The notes below the pieces were generated by a model that saw only the letters and a program-made list of their open reading frames with translations, was not told where the DNA came from and ran no database searches. A stretch of 29,053 nt of DNA. Origin: a virus. Lineage: Duplodnaviria; Caudoviricetes. The position numbers and the translations under genes are program-made. The stretch spans positions 1 through 29,053 of IMG/VR virus record IMGVR_UViG_3300033067_000430; one strand, written 5' to 3'. Shown one piece after another: positions 714 to 11,610 of this stretch; positions within the stretch are counted from its first letter, which is position 1; each line of letters opens with the position of its first letter.

Positions 714-953
714 ATGAGCAGCGCATCACAACAAACATCATTCACGCGGTTTGCGGCAATCACCGCGACGGTCTGCGCAGTGGCTGCTATTGGCGGATCA
801 CTGGTTGGGATTTGGCTTGTAGAACCCGAGGTCAACGCGGGCGCGTCTGCTTTTACTCCCGAGAGGTTTCGATGGTTGCAGACCCTTAACCTAACGATGT
901 CCGCGTCGGCCACGGGTGGCGCCGCAGCGCTGTGGGCGGAGTTGTGGAAATGA
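714..953 (+). CDS. small membrane protein
   Basis: ATG at 714 just after the previous stop; hydrophobic stretch FAAITATVCAVAAIGGSLVGIWLV; ATGA overlap with the next gene. Confidence 0.6.
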   Translation: MSSASQQTSFTRFAAITATVCAVAAIGGSLVGIWLVEPEVNAGASAFTPERFRWLQTLNLTMSASATGGAAALWAELWK

Positions 954-1975
954 AAAACGTCATTGCTCCCAAGTGGGTCTGCGCTCTTTCCATCCTCGTC
1001 GGCGTCACCGCCTTCGGGGTTCAATGCGCGATTGATATCTTCCAGTTCACGCGCAATGTTGCCGACCCGGTTGAGTGGTGGACGCAGGTTTGGCAGGCGG
1101 CGCTTCCCACAGGGTTCACCGTAGCCTTCTCAGCCTTCGGCGGCTGCTTGCTGTACGCGCGCGCTTGGGTCAGCGCTGCTGCATTGTATGTGTTTGTCGC
1201 CCTCGTGATGGCTGTCACGGCGTCGAATGGCATCGACTATCTCGCAAACTCAACTGTTGCCAAGACGGTGGAGGCGCAGAGGAAGGTTGTAGTTGCTAAC
1301 GACATTGCCGCTATTCAGACCGAGACAGCCAAGAAGGAGAGGCAGGAGACGCTGGACACCCTCTGGCGCACGTACACCGTCGCCAAAAAGTCGGAAGACA
1401 AGGAAAAGGTCCTTGGGCAGATCAAGGGCGTCACGGACACTCCGTTGCAGGTTCATGCCCCGGTTGTCGAAGAGGTGAAGATGGGCGGCGGCGCCATCCT
1501 CAAGCGCCGTTTCGGCATGAACCCCGAGATCATCCAAGAGGTGCGGTCGGTCGCGTTTCCGGTACTCATTTTGATTGGAAAGAGCCTTGCGATAACGCTG
1601 GGTTTTGCCTTCTGGCCGAAGGTTCCGGCGGTTTCCACTGAAACCCCAGCGAATCCTGCGGATTTTCCACCCACTTTCCACCCCACTTTCCACCCCCCTA
1701 CGATTGAAAAGAAAACCAAAGAAGAGGCCTTGAGCCTCATCCGCTCGGAGTTTCCAAAAAATCGCACAGGGATAGGGGTCAACTTCATCGCTGACCGCTG
1801 CGGTGTAAGCCGACCGTGCGCCCGATCCTGGCTTCGTCAACTTGAAACGGAAGGCCACGTCACGCTTGCGGAACGCCAGGAGCGCTTTGGCGTCAAGCCG
1901 ACAATGTATGTGAAGCTAGTCAAAACCGCCCCTGTTTTGGTGGCCAGCAATAACGACTTGAAAGCGTCTGCGTAA
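950..1975 (+). CDS. multi-pass membrane protein with coiled region and C-terminal (winged) HTH
   Basis: Three N-terminal hydrophobic helices, a charged helical middle, a fourth TM (VAFPVLILIGKSLAITLGFAFWP), then HTH-like GVNFIADRCGVSRPCARSWLRQLETEGHV. The ATG at 950 overlaps the upstream TGA. Confidence 0.75.
   Translation: MKNVIAPKWVCALSILVGVTAFGVQCAIDIFQFTRNVADPVEWWTQVWQAALPTGFTVAFSAFGGCLLYARAWVSAAALYVFVALVMAVTASNGIDYLANSTVAKTVEAQRKVVVANDIAAIQTETAKKERQETLDTLWRTYTVAKKSEDKEKVLGQIKGVTDTPLQVHAPVVEEVKMGGGAILKRRFGMNPEIIQEVRSVAFPVLILIGKSLAITLGFAFWPKVPAVSTETPANPADFPPTFHPTFHPPTIEKKTKEEALSLIRSEFPKNRTGIGVNFIADRCGVSRPCARSWLRQLETEGHVTLAERQERFGVKPTMYVKLVKTAPVLVASNNDLKASA
1664..1697 (+). repeat. TTTCCACCC direct repeats (3 copies, 11-12 bp spacing)
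   Basis: TTTCCAC at 1664, 1675 and 1687, plus a copy at 1632; the run encodes PPTFHPTFHPP. Confidence 0.75.
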
Positions 1976-2010
1976 AAAACAAAAGCCCGCTTTGGCGAGC
2001 GGGCTTGTTT
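1974..2010 (-). terminator. intrinsic terminator, strongest on the - strand, possibly bidirectional
   Basis: Stem AAGCCCGCT(1983-1991)/AGCGGGCTT(1998-2006) with loop TTGGCG. The A-run at 1974-1984 gives a U tail on the - strand; TTGTTT follows on the + strand. Confidence 0.75.
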
Positions 2011-2063
2011 CAACCAGTGGCCGGAGGTTGGCGCCTCGTGTCGGCCGATAACGAAGATCGGTG
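1974..2063 (-). ncRNA. putative ~90-nt counter-transcribed antisense RNA
   Basis: Lies between a predicted leftward promoter (2099-2070) and the - strand terminator; contains two hairpins with identical loops (CGCCAA on this strand). Confidence 0.5.
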
Positions 2064-2068
2064 AACAC

Positions 2069-2099
2069 TATGTACTACAACTTTAACGCCTACGTCAAG
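2069..2099 (-). promoter_or_regulatory. leftward sigma70-type promoter
   Basis: The - strand reads CTTGAC(2099-2094)-N18-GTACAT(2075-2070), close to the rhizobial consensus CTTGAC-N17/18-CTATAT. Confidence 0.5.
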
Positions 2100-2179
2100 C
2101 ACAGGTTGTCCCCAAATCTTCCACCGCCGTGGTGGATTGCACCGCGCCTCACTAAGCGTGCGGTTCTCTGCGCCTACTC

Positions 2180-2368
2180 GTGGCGCATCGTGTCCGCCTC
2201 ATCCACGCAGAGCGTCATCAATCGCTTTCGGCTGTGGGGCGCGTGATGGAACCGGCCACCCAGCAAATCAAAGCCAGCCTCGATGCGCTTATAGCCGCGA
2301 TGAAAGACCCACGCATAACGCGTGAGCAGCTGATCCGCATGATCTCTACGCAAGAGGTGCGGAAATGA
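2180..2368 (+). CDS. small leader ORF coupled to the replication initiator (start may be 2245)
   Basis: Its stop overlaps the initiator ATG (ATGA at 2365-2368); GAGGTG SD precedes 2365. Confidence 0.5.
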   Translation: MAHRVRLIHAERHQSLSAVGRVMEPATQQIKASLDALIAAMKDPRITREQLIRMISTQEVRK

Positions 2369-3474
2369 TCGGCCACAACAGACCGAACTTTGACACCGTC
2401 GTCGAGGACAGCCTTGTACGTGGCGTCTACCTTGTCCATCTGCAGGCCCTGCAGCGCTGCATCAAAGACCCGCGCCTGGATCAACGTCACCGTCTTGTGC
2501 TGGTGGCGCTGACAGAGTGCATCAACTCCAAGTCGGCCGTCGCTTACCCTGGGCGCGCTTGGCTGGCGGCCAACATTGCCCACTACGTGCACGGAGAGCC
2601 GCGCAGGTACTCTGAGGGTACGATTGCCAACACGCTCTCTGAGCTTGTGGAGTTTGGTTACCTCTACGTGACGCGGCGCGCACCAGAGAACGGAAAGCGT
2701 GCGCTCTCTCATTACGCGGTCTACTCACCATCCGTAGAAGAGTTGCAGAGCGAAATCGCGCTTGCTTGTGCCGCCATTCGGGCACTACCCAAGCGTCAAT
2801 TTCCACGGCCTGAGGTCAACTCCGGAGTTGACGTCAACTCGGTACGTGACGTCAAGAACGTGGTTGACATCAGGACCGGGCAGGAAATTCAGCAACCAAT
2901 TGAAAAACAACAAGAACCAGTTTTTGAGGTCAACTCTGGAAGTGACGTCAACTCCGGACGTGACGTCAACTTTTTCGAGGCTGAGGTCAACTCCGGTCGT
3001 GGACAGGAACTAGTTAAGGAACTGGTAGAAGAGAAAGAGGAAGATAAATCTTCCTCTTCGTCCGGCTGTAAGCCGGACAATGACTATGACGCTCGGCCGA
3101 TGAGCCGGGACATGCAGGAGGCTGTTCGCCTCTACAACCTTATTGCCGACGAGGCAGGCCTCCCGTTGGTGCGCTCAATGCGTTTGAGCGACAAGCGCCA
3201 GCGGTTACTTCGTGCTCGCCTCAAAGATGCTGGCGGCCTTCGCGGCTGGGCCGAGGCGATGAGCAATCTGCACAACTCCAAATTTCTCAGAGGGCAGAGC
3301 AAGAGCGGCTGGATGGCCGATTTTGACTTCTGCATTCGCCCGGACAGCTTCGACAAGCTCTGGAGCGGAAAATACACCGATGCGCACTTGCGCAAGGGGC
3401 CGACCGGAGACACGCCTGCGGCGTCGGCCTTGCGTGACGTTTACGAACAGCTTCGGGAGGGTGGCGATCCATGA
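2365..3474 (+). CDS. phage replication initiator / replisome organiser (lambda O-like architecture)
   Basis: N-terminal wHTH (AYPGRAWLA...SEGTIANTLSELVEFGYL), central iteron-encoded repeats, C-terminal SKFLRGQSKSGWMADFDFCIRPDSFDKLWSGKY typical of phage initiators; lies just upstream of the primase-helicase. Confidence 0.8.
   Translation: MIGHNRPNFDTVVEDSLVRGVYLVHLQALQRCIKDPRLDQRHRLVLVALTECINSKSAVAYPGRAWLAANIAHYVHGEPRRYSEGTIANTLSELVEFGYLYVTRRAPENGKRALSHYAVYSPSVEELQSEIALACAAIRALPKRQFPRPEVNSGVDVNSVRDVKNVVDIRTGQEIQQPIEKQQEPVFEVNSGSDVNSGRDVNFFEAEVNSGRGQELVKELVEEKEEDKSSSSSGCKPDNDYDARPMSRDMQEAVRLYNLIADEAGLPLVRSMRLSDKRQRLLRARLKDAGGLRGWAEAMSNLHNSKFLRGQSKSGWMADFDFCIRPDSFDKLWSGKYTDAHLRKGPTGDTPAASALRDVYEQLREGGDP
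2811..2999. repeat. iteron array, probable replication origin inside the initiator gene
   Basis: TGA(G/C)GTCAACT-type units at 2811, 2829, 2847, (2865 degenerate), 2925, 2943, 2961 and 2982, mostly 18 bp apart. The two blocks flank an A-rich spacer (~2885-2924). Confidence 0.85.
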
Positions 3475-3986
3475 TGCTCACCGTCTCCGAAATTCTCCAC
3501 CAAGAGCAGGTTAGGGAACGGCCAGGAGATCACTACTACACCACGTGCCCCCAGTGCTCCCCAAACCGAAAGCGACACAACCAGAAGAAGCCCTGCCTCA
3601 GGGTCCAAGTGGACGAAAGAGGCGTTCGGCTCACCTGCTTCCACTGCAGCTGGTTCAAGGCAAGATTCTACGACGAAGGAAATGGAAATGCTGGCAAAGC
3701 TTCAACTCTCAAGCGACCACAGTCAGTGGTTGGAAGCCGCCCGAAAGATCCCGTGCGAGATCGCAGCGGAGCACGGCGTGGTGTCGAAGGGGAACAGCCT
3801 TGGGTTCCAGTACACGCGGAACGGCGAGTGCTCGTTTCTGAAAATCAGAACGCCAGACAAGTCGTTTTGGATCGAGCCGAAGGGCGCCGCGTTGTTTCTG
3901 TGGAACGAGGACACGCTGAAAGAGCCGTCCGAGGCGCCACTAATCATCACGGAGGGCGAATTCGACGCACTGTCGTTCCTCGCTAG
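3471..3986 (+). CDS. Cys4 zinc-binding domain of a T7 gp4/Twinkle-type primase, with an out-of-frame tail
   Basis: YYTTCPQCS...KKPCLRV...TCFHCSW in the first ~70 aa; ATGA-coupled to the initiator. The last ~100 codons overlap the next gene and show no recognisable domain. Confidence 0.7.
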   Translation: MMLTVSEILHQEQVRERPGDHYYTTCPQCSPNRKRHNQKKPCLRVQVDERGVRLTCFHCSWFKARFYDEGNGNAGKASTLKRPQSVVGSRPKDPVRDRSGARRGVEGEQPWVPVHAERRVLVSENQNARQVVLDRAEGRRVVSVERGHAERAVRGATNHHGGRIRRTVVPR

Positions 3987-5133
3987 CGGGGCAACGCACG
4001 TTGTATCCGTGCCGAACGGCGCGGCCGGAAGGCCAGGAGAGGGTGACGTGATCCCGGCCAATGACAAGCAGTATGCCTACCTCTGGGAGGGCGGCCGACT
4101 AAAGCCAGCAATCGCCCAATTCAAGAAGGTCATCCTGGCGACAGATGATGATGAACCTGGCCGCATTTTGCGTGACGAACTGGCCATCCGCATTGGGCGC
4201 TCGCGTTGCTGGTTTGTGATCTATCCAGACGGCTGCAAAGACGCGAACGAGGTTCTGCAGCGTCTGGGCGCGGATGCTTTGCAAGACATGATTGCAGATG
4301 CGAAGCCCATGGTTCCCAACCAGCTCGTAAAGTTTTCCGATCTTCCCCAGCGGGGTGATCAGAAGCAATACAGCGCTGGATGGTCCAAGCTTGACCCGCA
4401 CTTCCGGTTTGCGCCGCCGCAGCTGATCGTCATTACTGGCGTCCCCAATGCCGGTAAGAGCGAATGGGCAATCTGTATGCTGGCCAATCTCGCGCGCATC
4501 CATGGCCTCAAAGGGGCAATCCTTCAATTTGAAGACAGTCCAGAGCGTAATCGGCGCACCCTGCTCACCTACGCAAAAACGTGGAGGGGGCAGGGCAACG
4601 GCGTCGGCATTCACGATGAGCCCGCAGTGTGGGTGGACGCGATGTTCCGCACAGTCACGCCGAACGAAGACGTCGATGATGACCGGGATTTTGATCTGAA
4701 ATGGCTACAGGGCGCGATTGAAGAAGCCGCCATTCGCCATGGCTGCAAGTGGGTTCTCATCGACCCATGGAACGAAGTTGAACATCTGTGGGGCCGCCAA
4801 GACACGGAGGCTTCCTATCTCAATCGAGCAATCAAACAGCTTAAGCGCATGGCGCGCAGGTACCAGATTGCAATCATCGTTGTGGCGCACCCGACCAAGG
4901 ACGGCGGCAAAAACTCCACGCTTGCTGACGCGTCTCTGTACGACATCGCGGGCGGCGCCGTGTGGAACAACAAGGCCGATCTTGGGGTGATCGTTTACTC
5001 CGATAATCCGGCCTCAACGACGGTTCGAGACATCAAGATCTGCAAGTCGAAGAACTATTTCACCATGGGCGTTCCAGGGACTGTCGTCATGGAATTTGAT
5101 CCTGTCAAAGCAACCTACAAGTGCAAGGGCTAA
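3682..5133 (+). CDS. Twinkle/T7 gp4-like primase-helicase (TOPRIM + DnaB-like helicase), no N-terminal zinc finger
   Basis: TOPRIM motifs IITEGEFDALS, VSVPNGA, ILATDDDEPG and CKDANEVL; Walker A ITGVPNAGKS; Walker B VLIDPWN; VVAHPTK; LYDIAGG..NKAD. Start is 3682 or 3688, after GAAGGA. Confidence 0.92.
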   Translation: MEMLAKLQLSSDHSQWLEAARKIPCEIAAEHGVVSKGNSLGFQYTRNGECSFLKIRTPDKSFWIEPKGAALFLWNEDTLKEPSEAPLIITEGEFDALSFLASGATHVVSVPNGAAGRPGEGDVIPANDKQYAYLWEGGRLKPAIAQFKKVILATDDDEPGRILRDELAIRIGRSRCWFVIYPDGCKDANEVLQRLGADALQDMIADAKPMVPNQLVKFSDLPQRGDQKQYSAGWSKLDPHFRFAPPQLIVITGVPNAGKSEWAICMLANLARIHGLKGAILQFEDSPERNRRTLLTYAKTWRGQGNGVGIHDEPAVWVDAMFRTVTPNEDVDDDRDFDLKWLQGAIEEAAIRHGCKWVLIDPWNEVEHLWGRQDTEASYLNRAIKQLKRMARRYQIAIIVVAHPTKDGGKNSTLADASLYDIAGGAVWNNKADLGVIVYSDNPASTTVRDIKICKSKNYFTMGVPGTVVMEFDPVKATYKCKG

Positions 5134-5734: not shown

Positions 5735-6373
5735 ATGGAAATGAAATATCTGTGGAAACTCGCTGGAATATCGGGTATTATGTTTGTGCTTGGGGCGAGT
5801 TCCCCAGTTCTCGCTCAAAGCAATCTCTCGTGCTCCCTAGGCGCTCAAGCTGGATTGACGATTGCTTCGTCTGAGATCTCCGGGACGGGGTTTTCGCTGG
5901 ACGGCTTGAGCGCTCGGTCCCGGAGCCCCGATTTCGGCCTTTACACGGGCTGCCTCTACAAAATCCCCACCACCCCTTTCGCAGTCGGCCCCTGGGGCGA
6001 ATACAATTGGCGAGCGGTGGACTTCAAAGCGAGCGCTGGGCCGGTTGGCCTCACAGTGGGCCTTGGCAATGCTTGGGCACTTGGTGCCCGTGCTGGCTAC
6101 GTCCTCTCGAATGGCGTGATGCCTTACGCCTTGATCGGCTACACGAGAACGGAACTGACCCTCCCAGCAGGTACACCCATCAGCAGCGATCTGAAGGGGT
6201 GGATGATGGGTGGTGGCATCGAGGTTCCGTTGGCGAAGAACCTGTCGTTTGCTGGCGAGGCCCGCTGGACTAAGTACGACGCGGTTGACCTCACGCCGGT
6301 CACGACAATCCCCGCAAGCCTGAAGACGGATGGGCTCAGCGTTATGGGCCGCCTCTCGGTCACACTGAACTGA
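5735..6373 (+). CDS. outer-membrane beta-barrel protein (Omp25/Omp31/RopB-like)
   Basis: Signal peptide ending ...SSPVLA-Q; alternating beta-strands; family-like motifs WALGARAGYV..MPYALIGY and GWMMGGGIEV..NLSFAGEARWTKY. Start may be 5741, after GGAG. Confidence 0.85.
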   Translation: MEMKYLWKLAGISGIMFVLGASSPVLAQSNLSCSLGAQAGLTIASSEISGTGFSLDGLSARSRSPDFGLYTGCLYKIPTTPFAVGPWGEYNWRAVDFKASAGPVGLTVGLGNAWALGARAGYVLSNGVMPYALIGYTRTELTLPAGTPISSDLKGWMMGGGIEVPLAKNLSFAGEARWTKYDAVDLTPVTTIPASLKTDGLSVMGRLSVTLN

Positions 6374-9787: not shown

Positions 9788-10206
9788 CGAAACAGAAGAA
9801 AAAACATGCCGGAAAAGCAGAGGCAGTTACAACTGAACCTGCACTCGGAAAACAGCCCGTTCCGGCACAGCTCACTCCATGGAAACCCGGCCAAAGCGGG
9901 AACCCTCTTGGAAGACCAAAAGGCAGCCGCAATAAGCTCGCGGAAGACTTCATCAAGGATCTTCACGAGGCCTGGCAAACGCAGGGCAAAGAGACCATCG
10001 AAAGGGTCATCTCTGAGCGCCCGCATGAGTTTCTGAAGGTCGTTGCTGGCCTTCTGCCGAAGGAAATCAAAATCAAGGACGAACTGAGTGAGTTCAGCGA
10101 TGAGCAGCTTGCAGCCCTCAACGCTCTTGCAGTCGCACTCATTGGAGACGCTGAAGGCGATCTCAGCGCGGATCAAGCGGGAGCAGGATCGAAGGCGCTC
10201 AATTGA
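9784..10206 (+). CDS. terS: terminase small subunit (DUF5681-like)
   Basis: WKPGQSGNPLGRPKGSRNKL motif; directly upstream of, and overlapping, TerL. Confidence 0.8.
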   Translation: MTKQKKKHAGKAEAVTTEPALGKQPVPAQLTPWKPGQSGNPLGRPKGSRNKLAEDFIKDLHEAWQTQGKETIERVISERPHEFLKVVAGLLPKEIKIKDELSEFSDEQLAALNALAVALIGDAEGDLSADQAGAGSKALN

Positions 10207-10846
10207 TCGGCTGAAGTTCTACGCGCCGTATGGCAAGCAAAGGGACTTTCACCGGGCGGGCGCTACGCATTCAGAGCGGTTGTTCATGGCAGGCAACCAG
10301 CTTGGCAAGACGGTTGCTGGTGGCGCCGAATGGGCCATGCACCTGACCGGGCGTTATCCTGATTGGTGGGATGGCGCCACGTTCTCTAATCCCGTCACCC
10401 TTTGGGCGGCAGGCGTGACCGGCGAAAGCACCAGAGACAACCCGCAGCGCATTCTAGTTGGCCCCCCACCCAAAGAAGAGGAGTGGGGCACAGGGATGAT
10501 CCCGAAGGATGCCCTTGTTGATTGGCACCGGGCTATGGGCATCGCCAATCTGCTTGATACGGTCATCGTCAAGTGGGGCGGTGGCGGTGATGTCCAGCAA
10601 GGCGAAAGCCAACTTAGCTTCAAGGCCTACGAGAAGGGCCGCGAGAAGTGGCAAGGCCCCACAATTGATGGGGTCTGGTTTGACGAAGAGCCTCCGCTTG
10701 AGATTTACACGGAAGGACTGACGCGCACCAACAACGGCCAGCGCAGCCAGTTCACCATGACGACGTTTACCCCGCTTCTTGGCATGTCGGAAGTCGTTCG
10801 AATGTTCCTGACGCCAAAGCAAATCGAAGGGATGATGAACAAGTGA
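10100..10846 (+). CDS. terL: terminase large subunit, N-terminal ATPase part (P22 gp2-like)
   Basis: PYGKQRDFH, Walker A MAGNQLGKT, Walker B VWFDEEPP, motif III TFTPLLG. Start is 10088 or 10100. Confidence 0.92.
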   Translation: MSSLQPSTLLQSHSLETLKAISARIKREQDRRRSIDRLKFYAPYGKQRDFHRAGATHSERLFMAGNQLGKTVAGGAEWAMHLTGRYPDWWDGATFSNPVTLWAAGVTGESTRDNPQRILVGPPPKEEEWGTGMIPKDALVDWHRAMGIANLLDTVIVKWGGGGDVQQGESQLSFKAYEKGREKWQGPTIDGVWFDEEPPLEIYTEGLTRTNNGQRSQFTMTTFTPLLGMSEVVRMFLTPKQIEGMMNK

Positions 10847-11610
10847 GCCGCCACGTCACGGTGATGACCATCGACGACGCGGAGCACTACACGCCAGAGC
10901 AACGGGCGCAGATCATCGCAAGCTATCCCGAGGCAGAGCGCGAGGCGCGCGCCAAGGGTGTCCCCGTTCTCGGCTCTGGCCGCGTCTTCCCAGTCGATGA
11001 GACGAAGATCAAGTGTGACCCGTTTCCGGTCCCCCGCCATTGGGCGCACATCATCGGAATTGACTTCGGCTGGGATCATCCCTTTGGCGCCGCCAAAATC
11101 GTCTGGGACAAGGACTCGGACGTTATCTATGTGACGGCCTGCTATCGCGAGCGGCAAGCAACGCCGCCGATCCATGCTGCCGCCATCAAGCCTTGGGGCG
11201 ATCGCATCACGGTTGCCTGGCCGCACGACGGTCTGCAGCACGACAAGAGTTCAGGCCTCCAGCTCAAAGAGCAGTATATCAAGCAAGGCCTTAACATGTG
11301 GCACGAGCACGCCACGCACGAGGCTGGCGGCTTTGGCATTGAGGCTGGAATTCTAGAGATCCTTGAGCGGATGCAGACTGGCCGCTTCAAGGTGTTCTCA
11401 ACCCTTAGCGAGTGGTTCGAAGAGTTCCGCCTGTACCACCGCAAGGAAGGCATCATCGTGAAGCTGGCCGATGACATCCTCTCGGCTACGCGCATCGCAG
11501 TAATGATGCGCCGCTTTGCTCTTCCCTTGGGGCAGGAGCCAGACAAGCGGCCCAACGGCGACTATGGCTCTGAATACGGCTATGCAGATGAAAACTGGAA
11601 GGTGGCATGA
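10843..11610 (+). CDS. terL: terminase large subunit, C-terminal part (lid + RNase H-like nuclease)
   Basis: MTIDDAEHY..IIASYP..EREARAKG.P.LGSGRVF, IGIDFGWDHP, AWPHDG and DDILSATR, all P22 gp2-like. Confidence 0.92.
   Translation: MSRHVTVMTIDDAEHYTPEQRAQIIASYPEAEREARAKGVPVLGSGRVFPVDETKIKCDPFPVPRHWAHIIGIDFGWDHPFGAAKIVWDKDSDVIYVTACYRERQATPPIHAAAIKPWGDRITVAWPHDGLQHDKSSGLQLKEQYIKQGLNMWHEHATHEAGGFGIEAGILEILERMQTGRFKVFSTLSEWFEEFRLYHRKEGIIVKLADDILSATRIAVMMRRFALPLGQEPDKRPNGDYGSEYGYADENWKVA

Follow-up and report, generated by a model that had tools for sequence, protein, structure and literature searches.

Putative counter-transcript with repeated loops in the leader of a phage replication module

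In plasmid R1, the target RNA CopT carries a UUGGCG loop, and repA is reportedly controlled through a leader. UUGGCG is also said to be the target motif in Inc/repZ control of ColIb-P9. The repABC systems of Alphaproteobacteria, of which p42d is one, have a counter-transcript between the upstream gene and the initiator. A YUNR U-turn in the recognition loop, on either strand, is described for antisense systems that work by loop-loop contact in the accessible part of PMC4485353. For Pseudomonas plasmids, Bardaji et al. describe a portable module made of stem-loops, a putative antisense RNA and a leader, with incompatibility depending on the letters of the loop (PMC5304414, available sections). 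Among phages, the OOP RNA of lambda has been tied to replication for decades, by a mechanism that the available sections of PMC3349717 and PMC5869508 present as unsettled. The element analyzed here occupies the slot of lambda OOP, and its mechanism, in which the ribosome-binding site at the head of a chain of coupled genes would be blocked, is likely plasmid-like.

The window is the 29,053-nt stretch of phage record IMGVR_UViG_3300033067_000430 (49% complete) that was analyzed as a whole. Besides the initiator, it encodes a primase-helicase, a terminase, a portal and a capsid. The layout is lambdoid, with an O-like initiator gene that has iterons inside; the iteron cluster is likely a lambda-type origin. 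The GcrA gene that opens the window points to an alphaproteobacterial host. This gene (2-484) is a phage-encoded homolog of the GcrA cell-cycle regulator in the early operon, and a similar ORF was seen by eye in the related locus L011. In related loci, inspection of the ORF lists by eye also revealed a repressor-like and cro-like gene pair farther upstream, which places the element within an early operon read rightward, where accessory genes lie on one side of it and the replication module on the other. The accessory gene whose stop codon adjoins the element gave no CII family match in the family searches and is swapped for unrelated DNA in some relatives (loose ends before 1941/1964; runs X2, X6 and X11). 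The features of the region are listed in Table 1.

Table 1. Coordinates of the element and of the genes around it (positions in the window)
Feature	Position	Strand	Remarks
Upstream accessory gene	932..1975	+	N-terminal hydrophobic segments, weak C-terminal helix-turn-helix (sub-threshold matches only)
U tail of the predicted antisense terminator	1974..1982	-	A tract on plus strand
Predicted antisense RNA, ~89 nt	1974..2063	-	Single-stranded 5' tail and two hairpins; start inferred from the -10 box
Hairpin 1, AAGCCCGCT-TTGGCG-AGCGGGCTT	1983..2006, loop 1992-1997	.	Terminator stem of the predicted antisense RNA (loop CGCCAA); mRNA loop TTGGCG
Hairpin 2, GGCCG-GAGG-TTGGCG-CCTC-(4 nt)-CGGCC	2019..2046, loop 2028-2033	.	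Second TTGGCG/CGCCAA loop, 4-nt bulge
Predicted Shine-Dalgarno GGTGA of ORF-A	2060..2064	+	At the 5' edge of the antisense RNA; inferred from sequence
Predicted leftward sigma70-type promoter	2069..2099	-	-35 at 2098-2093, -10 at 2074-2069
ORF-A, 58 codons	2070..2246	+	ATG inside reverse -10 box; stop overlaps ORF-B start (TGATG)
ORF-B, 40 codons	2246..2368	+	Small conserved protein; ATGA overlap with initiator
O-like replication initiator	2365..3474	+	PHROG 345 'replication initiation O-like', E 5e-15
Iteron cluster inside initiator gene	2811..3001	.	5 copies of a 20-nt unit, 18-nt spacing
Zinc-finger ORF	3471..3986	+	ATGA overlap with initiator
TOPRIM primase-helicase	3682..5133	+	Family matches

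The earlier note on this DNA had described two adjacent hairpins sharing the loop TTGGCG, and a counter-transcript that would be delimited by a leftward promoter and by a U-tailed terminator on the minus strand. Both hairpins are present, with their loops at the positions claimed, and the promoter-like site and the terminator were both located, framing a predicted counter-transcript of about 89 nt. The terminator was called by prediction on the minus strand (2006-1983, with U tail). On the same strand, CTTGAC (2099-2094) and GTACAT (2075-2070) are separated by 18 nt, which in the sigma70 register reads TTGACG-18-TACATA and scores 8/12. The antisense strand from 2063 to 1974 folds into both hairpins (z -2.6), an equally good fold being found in 1 of 200 shuffles. 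The predicted start at 2062-2063 overlaps the Shine-Dalgarno of ORF-A only in part. A pair of identical hexamers at most 70 nt apart, both flanked by stems and one of them by a stem of at least 8 bp, is found on the plus strand only here and on the minus strand at one other place.

The reading that we prefer, and to which we would give about an even chance on the basis of sequence comparison, is that a cis-antisense RNA base-pairs with the leader by means of its 5' tail and repeated loops, prevents ribosomes from starting at the first ORF and reduces expression of the coupled replication genes. The leftward promoter-like site, which lies over the first codons of ORF-A, would produce a self-terminating RNA of about 89 nt, whose pairing partner would be the intercistronic leader of the early rightward mRNA. 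First contact would be made through the repeated loops, UUGGCG on the mRNA and CGCCAA on the antisense RNA, and pairing would then spread to the 5' tail, reaching the ribosome-binding site of ORF-A. The loss of ORF-A translation would pass down the coupled chain, leaving less replication protein, and RNase III might cut the duplex. As the antisense unit begins directly after the upstream stop codon, its target would be the downstream leader. The RNA would rise with template number, and would brake early origin firing in a temperate integrating phage rather than serve as copy control of a plasmid-prophage.

In run X2, a close relative, the hairpin region is unchanged over about 100 nt, whereas a stretch of about 340 nt downstream has 28 changes (P 0.0008). 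The promoter spacer is changed at 5 of 18 positions, against none of the 12 box positions (P 0.07); both counts leave out five differences close to the alignment ends. On the other side, run X11 has indels in hairpin 2, and a second contig of run X1 carries a different loop in hairpin 1. A near-identical copy of the whole element was found with the hairpin-1 pattern in locus L022, ahead of DnaB and another initiator. Hairpin 2 is identical there and hairpin 1 has two compensatory pair changes, a covariation that comes from two sequences and is alone not significant (112/500 shuffles). A leftward TTGACA-17-TAGGTA and a short ORF are also found in this locus. Covariation counts from multiple DNA alignments of distant elements were dropped, the alignments being too unreliable.

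The layout was then sought across the wider clade in 15 slots: the window, six of the seven loci of the A1 searches, L011 and L012 (primase search), L022 and the five best new loci; L005 was left out for having too little upstream DNA. A leftward promoter of at least 8/12 is found in 12 of these slots (1.4 expected from shuffles) and a rightward one in none, with an ATG within -8..+3 of the -10 edge in 13 (2.3 expected), all counts being inflated by the choice of the slots by hand and eye. A fixed detector found the layout in 7/17 loci of its tuning set, with 8 hits in 14.3 kb against 4 in 199.8 kb. In a held-out set of mostly distant loci, from which eight duplicates or look-alikes had been removed beforehand, it was found in 5/39 (1.3 expected, P 0.01), with two hits of opposite orientation in the same slots. 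Taken with the counts in the 15 slots, this indicates a layout that is strong among close relatives and, farther out, either weak or not detected. The claim of a counter-transcript unit placed before replication genes is supported, the predicted layout being kept in related phages. In the relatives with the ATG left of the -10, the predicted antisense 5' tail reaches farther into the downstream ribosome-binding site.

These comparisons bear on the possibility that no functional antisense RNA is made, and that the element is a terminator with a common loop, joined by a chance second loop and by a promoter look-alike that stems from the start-codon region. TTGGCG is indeed frequent, with 50 matches in the window, and shuffling a single 165-nt stretch gives a score of 8/12 about 10% of the time. 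In addition, a strict promoter scan of the window did not call the leftward site (2099-2069), and the Rfam scan proposed earlier returned no family for the element: there were no gathering hits in the window and, by E-value, only weak terminator-type matches, and no match fell on the element in 16 related loci. Against this explanation, the promoter geometry recurs, leftward only, in relatives of unrelated sequence, the hairpin region is more conserved than the adjacent coding DNA, and a near-identical element stands ahead of another replication module. We consider it improbable.

The loop letters are less constant than the layout. That TTGGCG as such is what is conserved is not supported, as TTGGCG sense loops are found in only 2 of 12 protein-selected, folded relatives (three in L011, two of three in L065). 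The layout does not require TTGGCG, and other relatives repeat different loops. Locus L012, homologous to L011, has TGCCAG twice instead, giving CUGGCA on the antisense strand; similar loops are found on the antisense strand in L002 and L006, and TTGCCG in L004. In 6/12 of the protein-selected relatives, there is no repeated or YUGGCR-type loop. That the loops are repeated within an element and change together between homologs favors loop recognition, while duplication of a hairpin could be an alternative source of this concerted repetition. The hairpin-1 pattern matches 15 viral loci, against one with the loop reversed. These represent about 10 independent types, of which three lie before replication genes (Pfam), five are plain-terminator-like and two are unclear. 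Loci of the plain-terminator type, with hairpin 1 and its TTGGCG loop, are found after structural or convergent genes. Since the hairpin-1 loop also occurs in plain terminators, the TTGGCG loop alone is not diagnostic.

Hairpin 1 is possibly also a weak terminator on the plus strand. An unlikely explanation, which makes use of this, is that hairpin 1 terminates transcription in both directions within the early operon, with the counter-promoter or its RNA tuning read-through by attenuation or promoter interference. Hairpin 1 directly follows the stop codon and has the plus-strand tail TTGTTTC, the same hairpin type is a plain terminator in 5 of the about 10 independent types, and the phage encodes a NusG-like antiterminator. 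The sense RNA also offers a possible switch: in its equilibrium fold, an alternative helix (2045-2049/2057-2061, probability 0.96) displaces the outer stem of hairpin 2. This helix hides part of the Shine-Dalgarno, and sense loop 2 is not exposed in the fold, a point against the reading that we prefer. The plus-strand U tract is nevertheless weak, is not called as a terminator and is absent in L011, L012, L004 and L002. Runs X2 and X6 carry changes at 2056-2065 that disrupt the alternative helix, and no conserved switch is therefore assumed.

The reading frames overlap in a chain from ORF-A through ORF-B and the initiator to the zinc-finger ORF. Coupling of a short ORF to the initiator had been noted before; the stop/start overlaps for such coupling are present, through two ORFs in place of the single frame from 2180. 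That 62-codon frame was rejected as the leader, since the substitutions do not fit it. Further hairpins had been placed at about 2110-2126 and 2141-2164: the latter is present, and the third hairpin lies instead at about 2120-2136, both being within ORF-A. Among the changes listed for four related contigs (a listing complete for X2, with 28, and X7, with 17), third codon positions account for 8 of 14 changed sites in ORF-A beyond 2100 and for 10 of 12 in ORF-B. The ORF-A stop is conserved as TAA in X2 and X6, and its start region is free to vary. A homolog of ORF-B is found upstream of rep in L003, so that ORF-B is a conserved small protein and more than a leader. No leader ORF precedes dnaB in L004 and L001, where dnaB itself starts at the ATG next to the -10.

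The known phage counterpart is the lambda pO-oop-tO unit. Both are short leftward self-terminating units, here a predicted one, right before the replication genes. The lambda promoter pO has its reverse -10 over the start of O, with the tO hairpin upstream (J02459), just as the ATG of ORF-A lies inside the reverse -10 here. An optional orf before an O-like initiator with iterons inside its gene is likewise common to both (PMC3349717, sections available). The element nevertheless lacks two hallmarks of OOP, a cII-like overlap and sequence likeness: lambda OOP overlaps 52-55 nt of cII, whereas the overlap with the upstream gene here is limited to the stop codon, and model R1, run against L010, the lambda locus, gave no match even with E values of up to 1 allowed. 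No lambdoid phages were found among the BLAST matches of the element. OOP also starts just upstream of the Shine-Dalgarno of O (position 776 of L010), while the 5' tail here reaches the downstream ribosome-binding site, and the two or three hairpins with repeated loops of this element and its relatives are not a feature of OOP.

These differences matter for a second way in which an antisense RNA might act, as OOP would, mainly through RNase III cleavage of the polycistronic early mRNA or together with the iteron origin. In its cleavage version, the RNA would affect the upstream regulators and the lysis/lysogeny choice rather than block a ribosome-binding site. The shared slot and unit make this possible, yet we hold it to be doubtful: the overlap amounts to a stop codon where OOP covers 52-55 nt of cII, the gene before the element bears no likeness to CII and is swapped from one relative to another, the ribosome-binding site downstream lies within the reach of the 5' tail, and multiple identical loops point to loop recognition.

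Several plasmid systems resemble the element in design. With CopA/CopT-tap-repA of R1, Inc/repY/repZ of ColIb-P9 and RNAI of ColE2, it shares a counter-transcript, here predicted, whose 3' hairpin is the terminator. With R1 and ColIb-P9, it also shares a small, putatively coupled ORF before rep and the UUGGCG target loops, exposure of the second one on the mRNA being doubtful here. Unlike these three, it lies in a phage early operon, with two coupled ORFs, one of them under purifying selection, and no partition genes were found. An IncI-type pseudoknot is not apparent, the full hexamer CGCCAA being absent from the plus strand between 1387 and 4794, and the IncFII/IncI models of Rfam had no match in the window. 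The repABC ctRNA is similar in its location between an upstream gene and the initiator and in its host class. It differs in lying between repB and repC, whereas the element is flanked by an accessory gene and an O-like initiator (not RepC), with neither repA/repB partition genes nor an Rfam ctRNA match. As for the P4 CI and P1 C4 immunity RNAs, there was no Rfam C4 match and, in a search for the loop complement, no same-strand complement nearby.

The REx-C module, compared here by its description in the available sections of PMC5304414, has two or three stem-loops, the first being the predicted antisense terminator, and a putative leader ORF, as does the element. It is portable across unrelated rep genes, with the loop letters setting specificity, and the element likewise heads different replication modules in the window and in L022. 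REx-C is a plasmid module, reported in these sections as limited to Pseudomonas, and its antisense RNA is also only predicted.

The likeness to plasmids extends to sequence for hairpin 1. By BLAST, the element matched 109 plasmid records through this hairpin. One plasmid family comprises 91 records and has no Rfam match. All four plasmid matches examined lie upstream of an annotated rep gene, with a second TTGGCG 60 to 130 nt farther on. The suggestion of U-turn-type repeated loops of the plasmid kind is supported to this extent, hairpin 1 and a second TTGGCG loop standing before real plasmid rep genes. Only hairpin 1 is shared in sequence with the plasmids, and convergence is therefore as likely as descent. 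Twin TTGGCG hairpins were seen before rep in L033 (1809-1960), L034 (1802-1950) and L036, in the parC-rep gap of rep_cluster_429 plasmids, and a leftward TTGCGT-17-TACAAT was noted before rep by eye in these plasmids; this stretch is common to 91 plasmid records. A Vibrio plasmid with a portal gene, and thus phage-plasmid-like (L035, 2201-2480), carries hairpin 1 in identical form and another TTGGCG loop, together with a leftward promoter, upstream of a hypothetical gene and of a Rep3 initiator; L013, L018, L019, L023 and L026 were grouped with it.

A plasmid-like or carrier state, which had been proposed for this phage, is unsupported by these sequences. The record with the near-identical element, the closest homolog, contains a tyrosine integrase, the only one among five related records, and ParA was found in none of the five, all of them incomplete. 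Neither integrase nor ParA was found in the window, itself 49% complete. A broader and rather speculative scenario, which we rate as having a small chance, is that a clade of alphaproteobacterial temperate phages carries a portable plasmid-style kissing-loop module in which the concerted loops (TTGGCG, TGCCAG) would define specificity groups. RNA from a prophage would then silence the replication of superinfecting phages with the same loops independently of the repressor, and this so far undescribed design would be shared with pXAC64-type plasmids and Vibrio phage-plasmids, in which the first hairpin is identical and twin loops stand ahead of rep. If the antisense reading is right, an RNA in this slot that faces the ribosome-binding site of a coupled chain and has plasmid-type recognition loops, with no cII overlap, would allow simple fusions to test whether phage initiation is under direct antisense control. 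It would also provide natural orthogonal loop pairs and an RNA family that is absent from Rfam and is found before plasmid rep genes as well.

In other searches, the initiator, as a single-protein query, had no relative in the viral contigs, and alignment A1 had none in the genome contigs. Model R1 gave 0 hits in 151 genomes of one alphaproteobacterial order, a set without a positive control. BLAST against named phages gave matches to the hairpin-1 terminator only, and the L011 element gave two short unrelated matches. The literature searched, with subscription papers mostly outside it, gave no account of the element in alphaproteobacterial phages. The pattern of two loops plus promoter matched two loci in the viral contigs, both chance matches in coding DNA, and three in the genome contigs, all by chance. 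The twin-loop pattern matched four loci: L029 and L031 appear to be chance matches, L032 is the same as L022, and L030 is a three-loop element. The latter (2380-2590, minus strand) belongs to a high-GC phage and, upstream of a long ORF, combines three hairpins that have TTGGCG loops with a promoter-like site facing left.

Some minor observations were made in the window and in related phages. The T7-like primase-helicase is split between the zinc-finger ORF and a TOPRIM-helicase ORF that overlaps it in a different reading frame. L011 (4781-6485) and L012 (4775-6458) show this split too; it could represent separate polypeptides or a conserved frameshift. The family match to the large terminase falls on two ORFs (10088-10846 and 10843-11610), with a 4-nt overlap. 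The gene for the NusG-like antiterminator lies in the 7952-8476/8477-8955 region and is followed, before the late genes, by a long stretch without any family-matched gene, which may hold a late promoter and an RNA element. An outer-membrane beta-barrel gene is found within the phage early region (5735-6373). Finally, matches to the MmgR/suhB small RNA above the Rfam threshold were mapped to the early regions of related phages, at 1857-1932 in L007 and 2009-2093 in L012.
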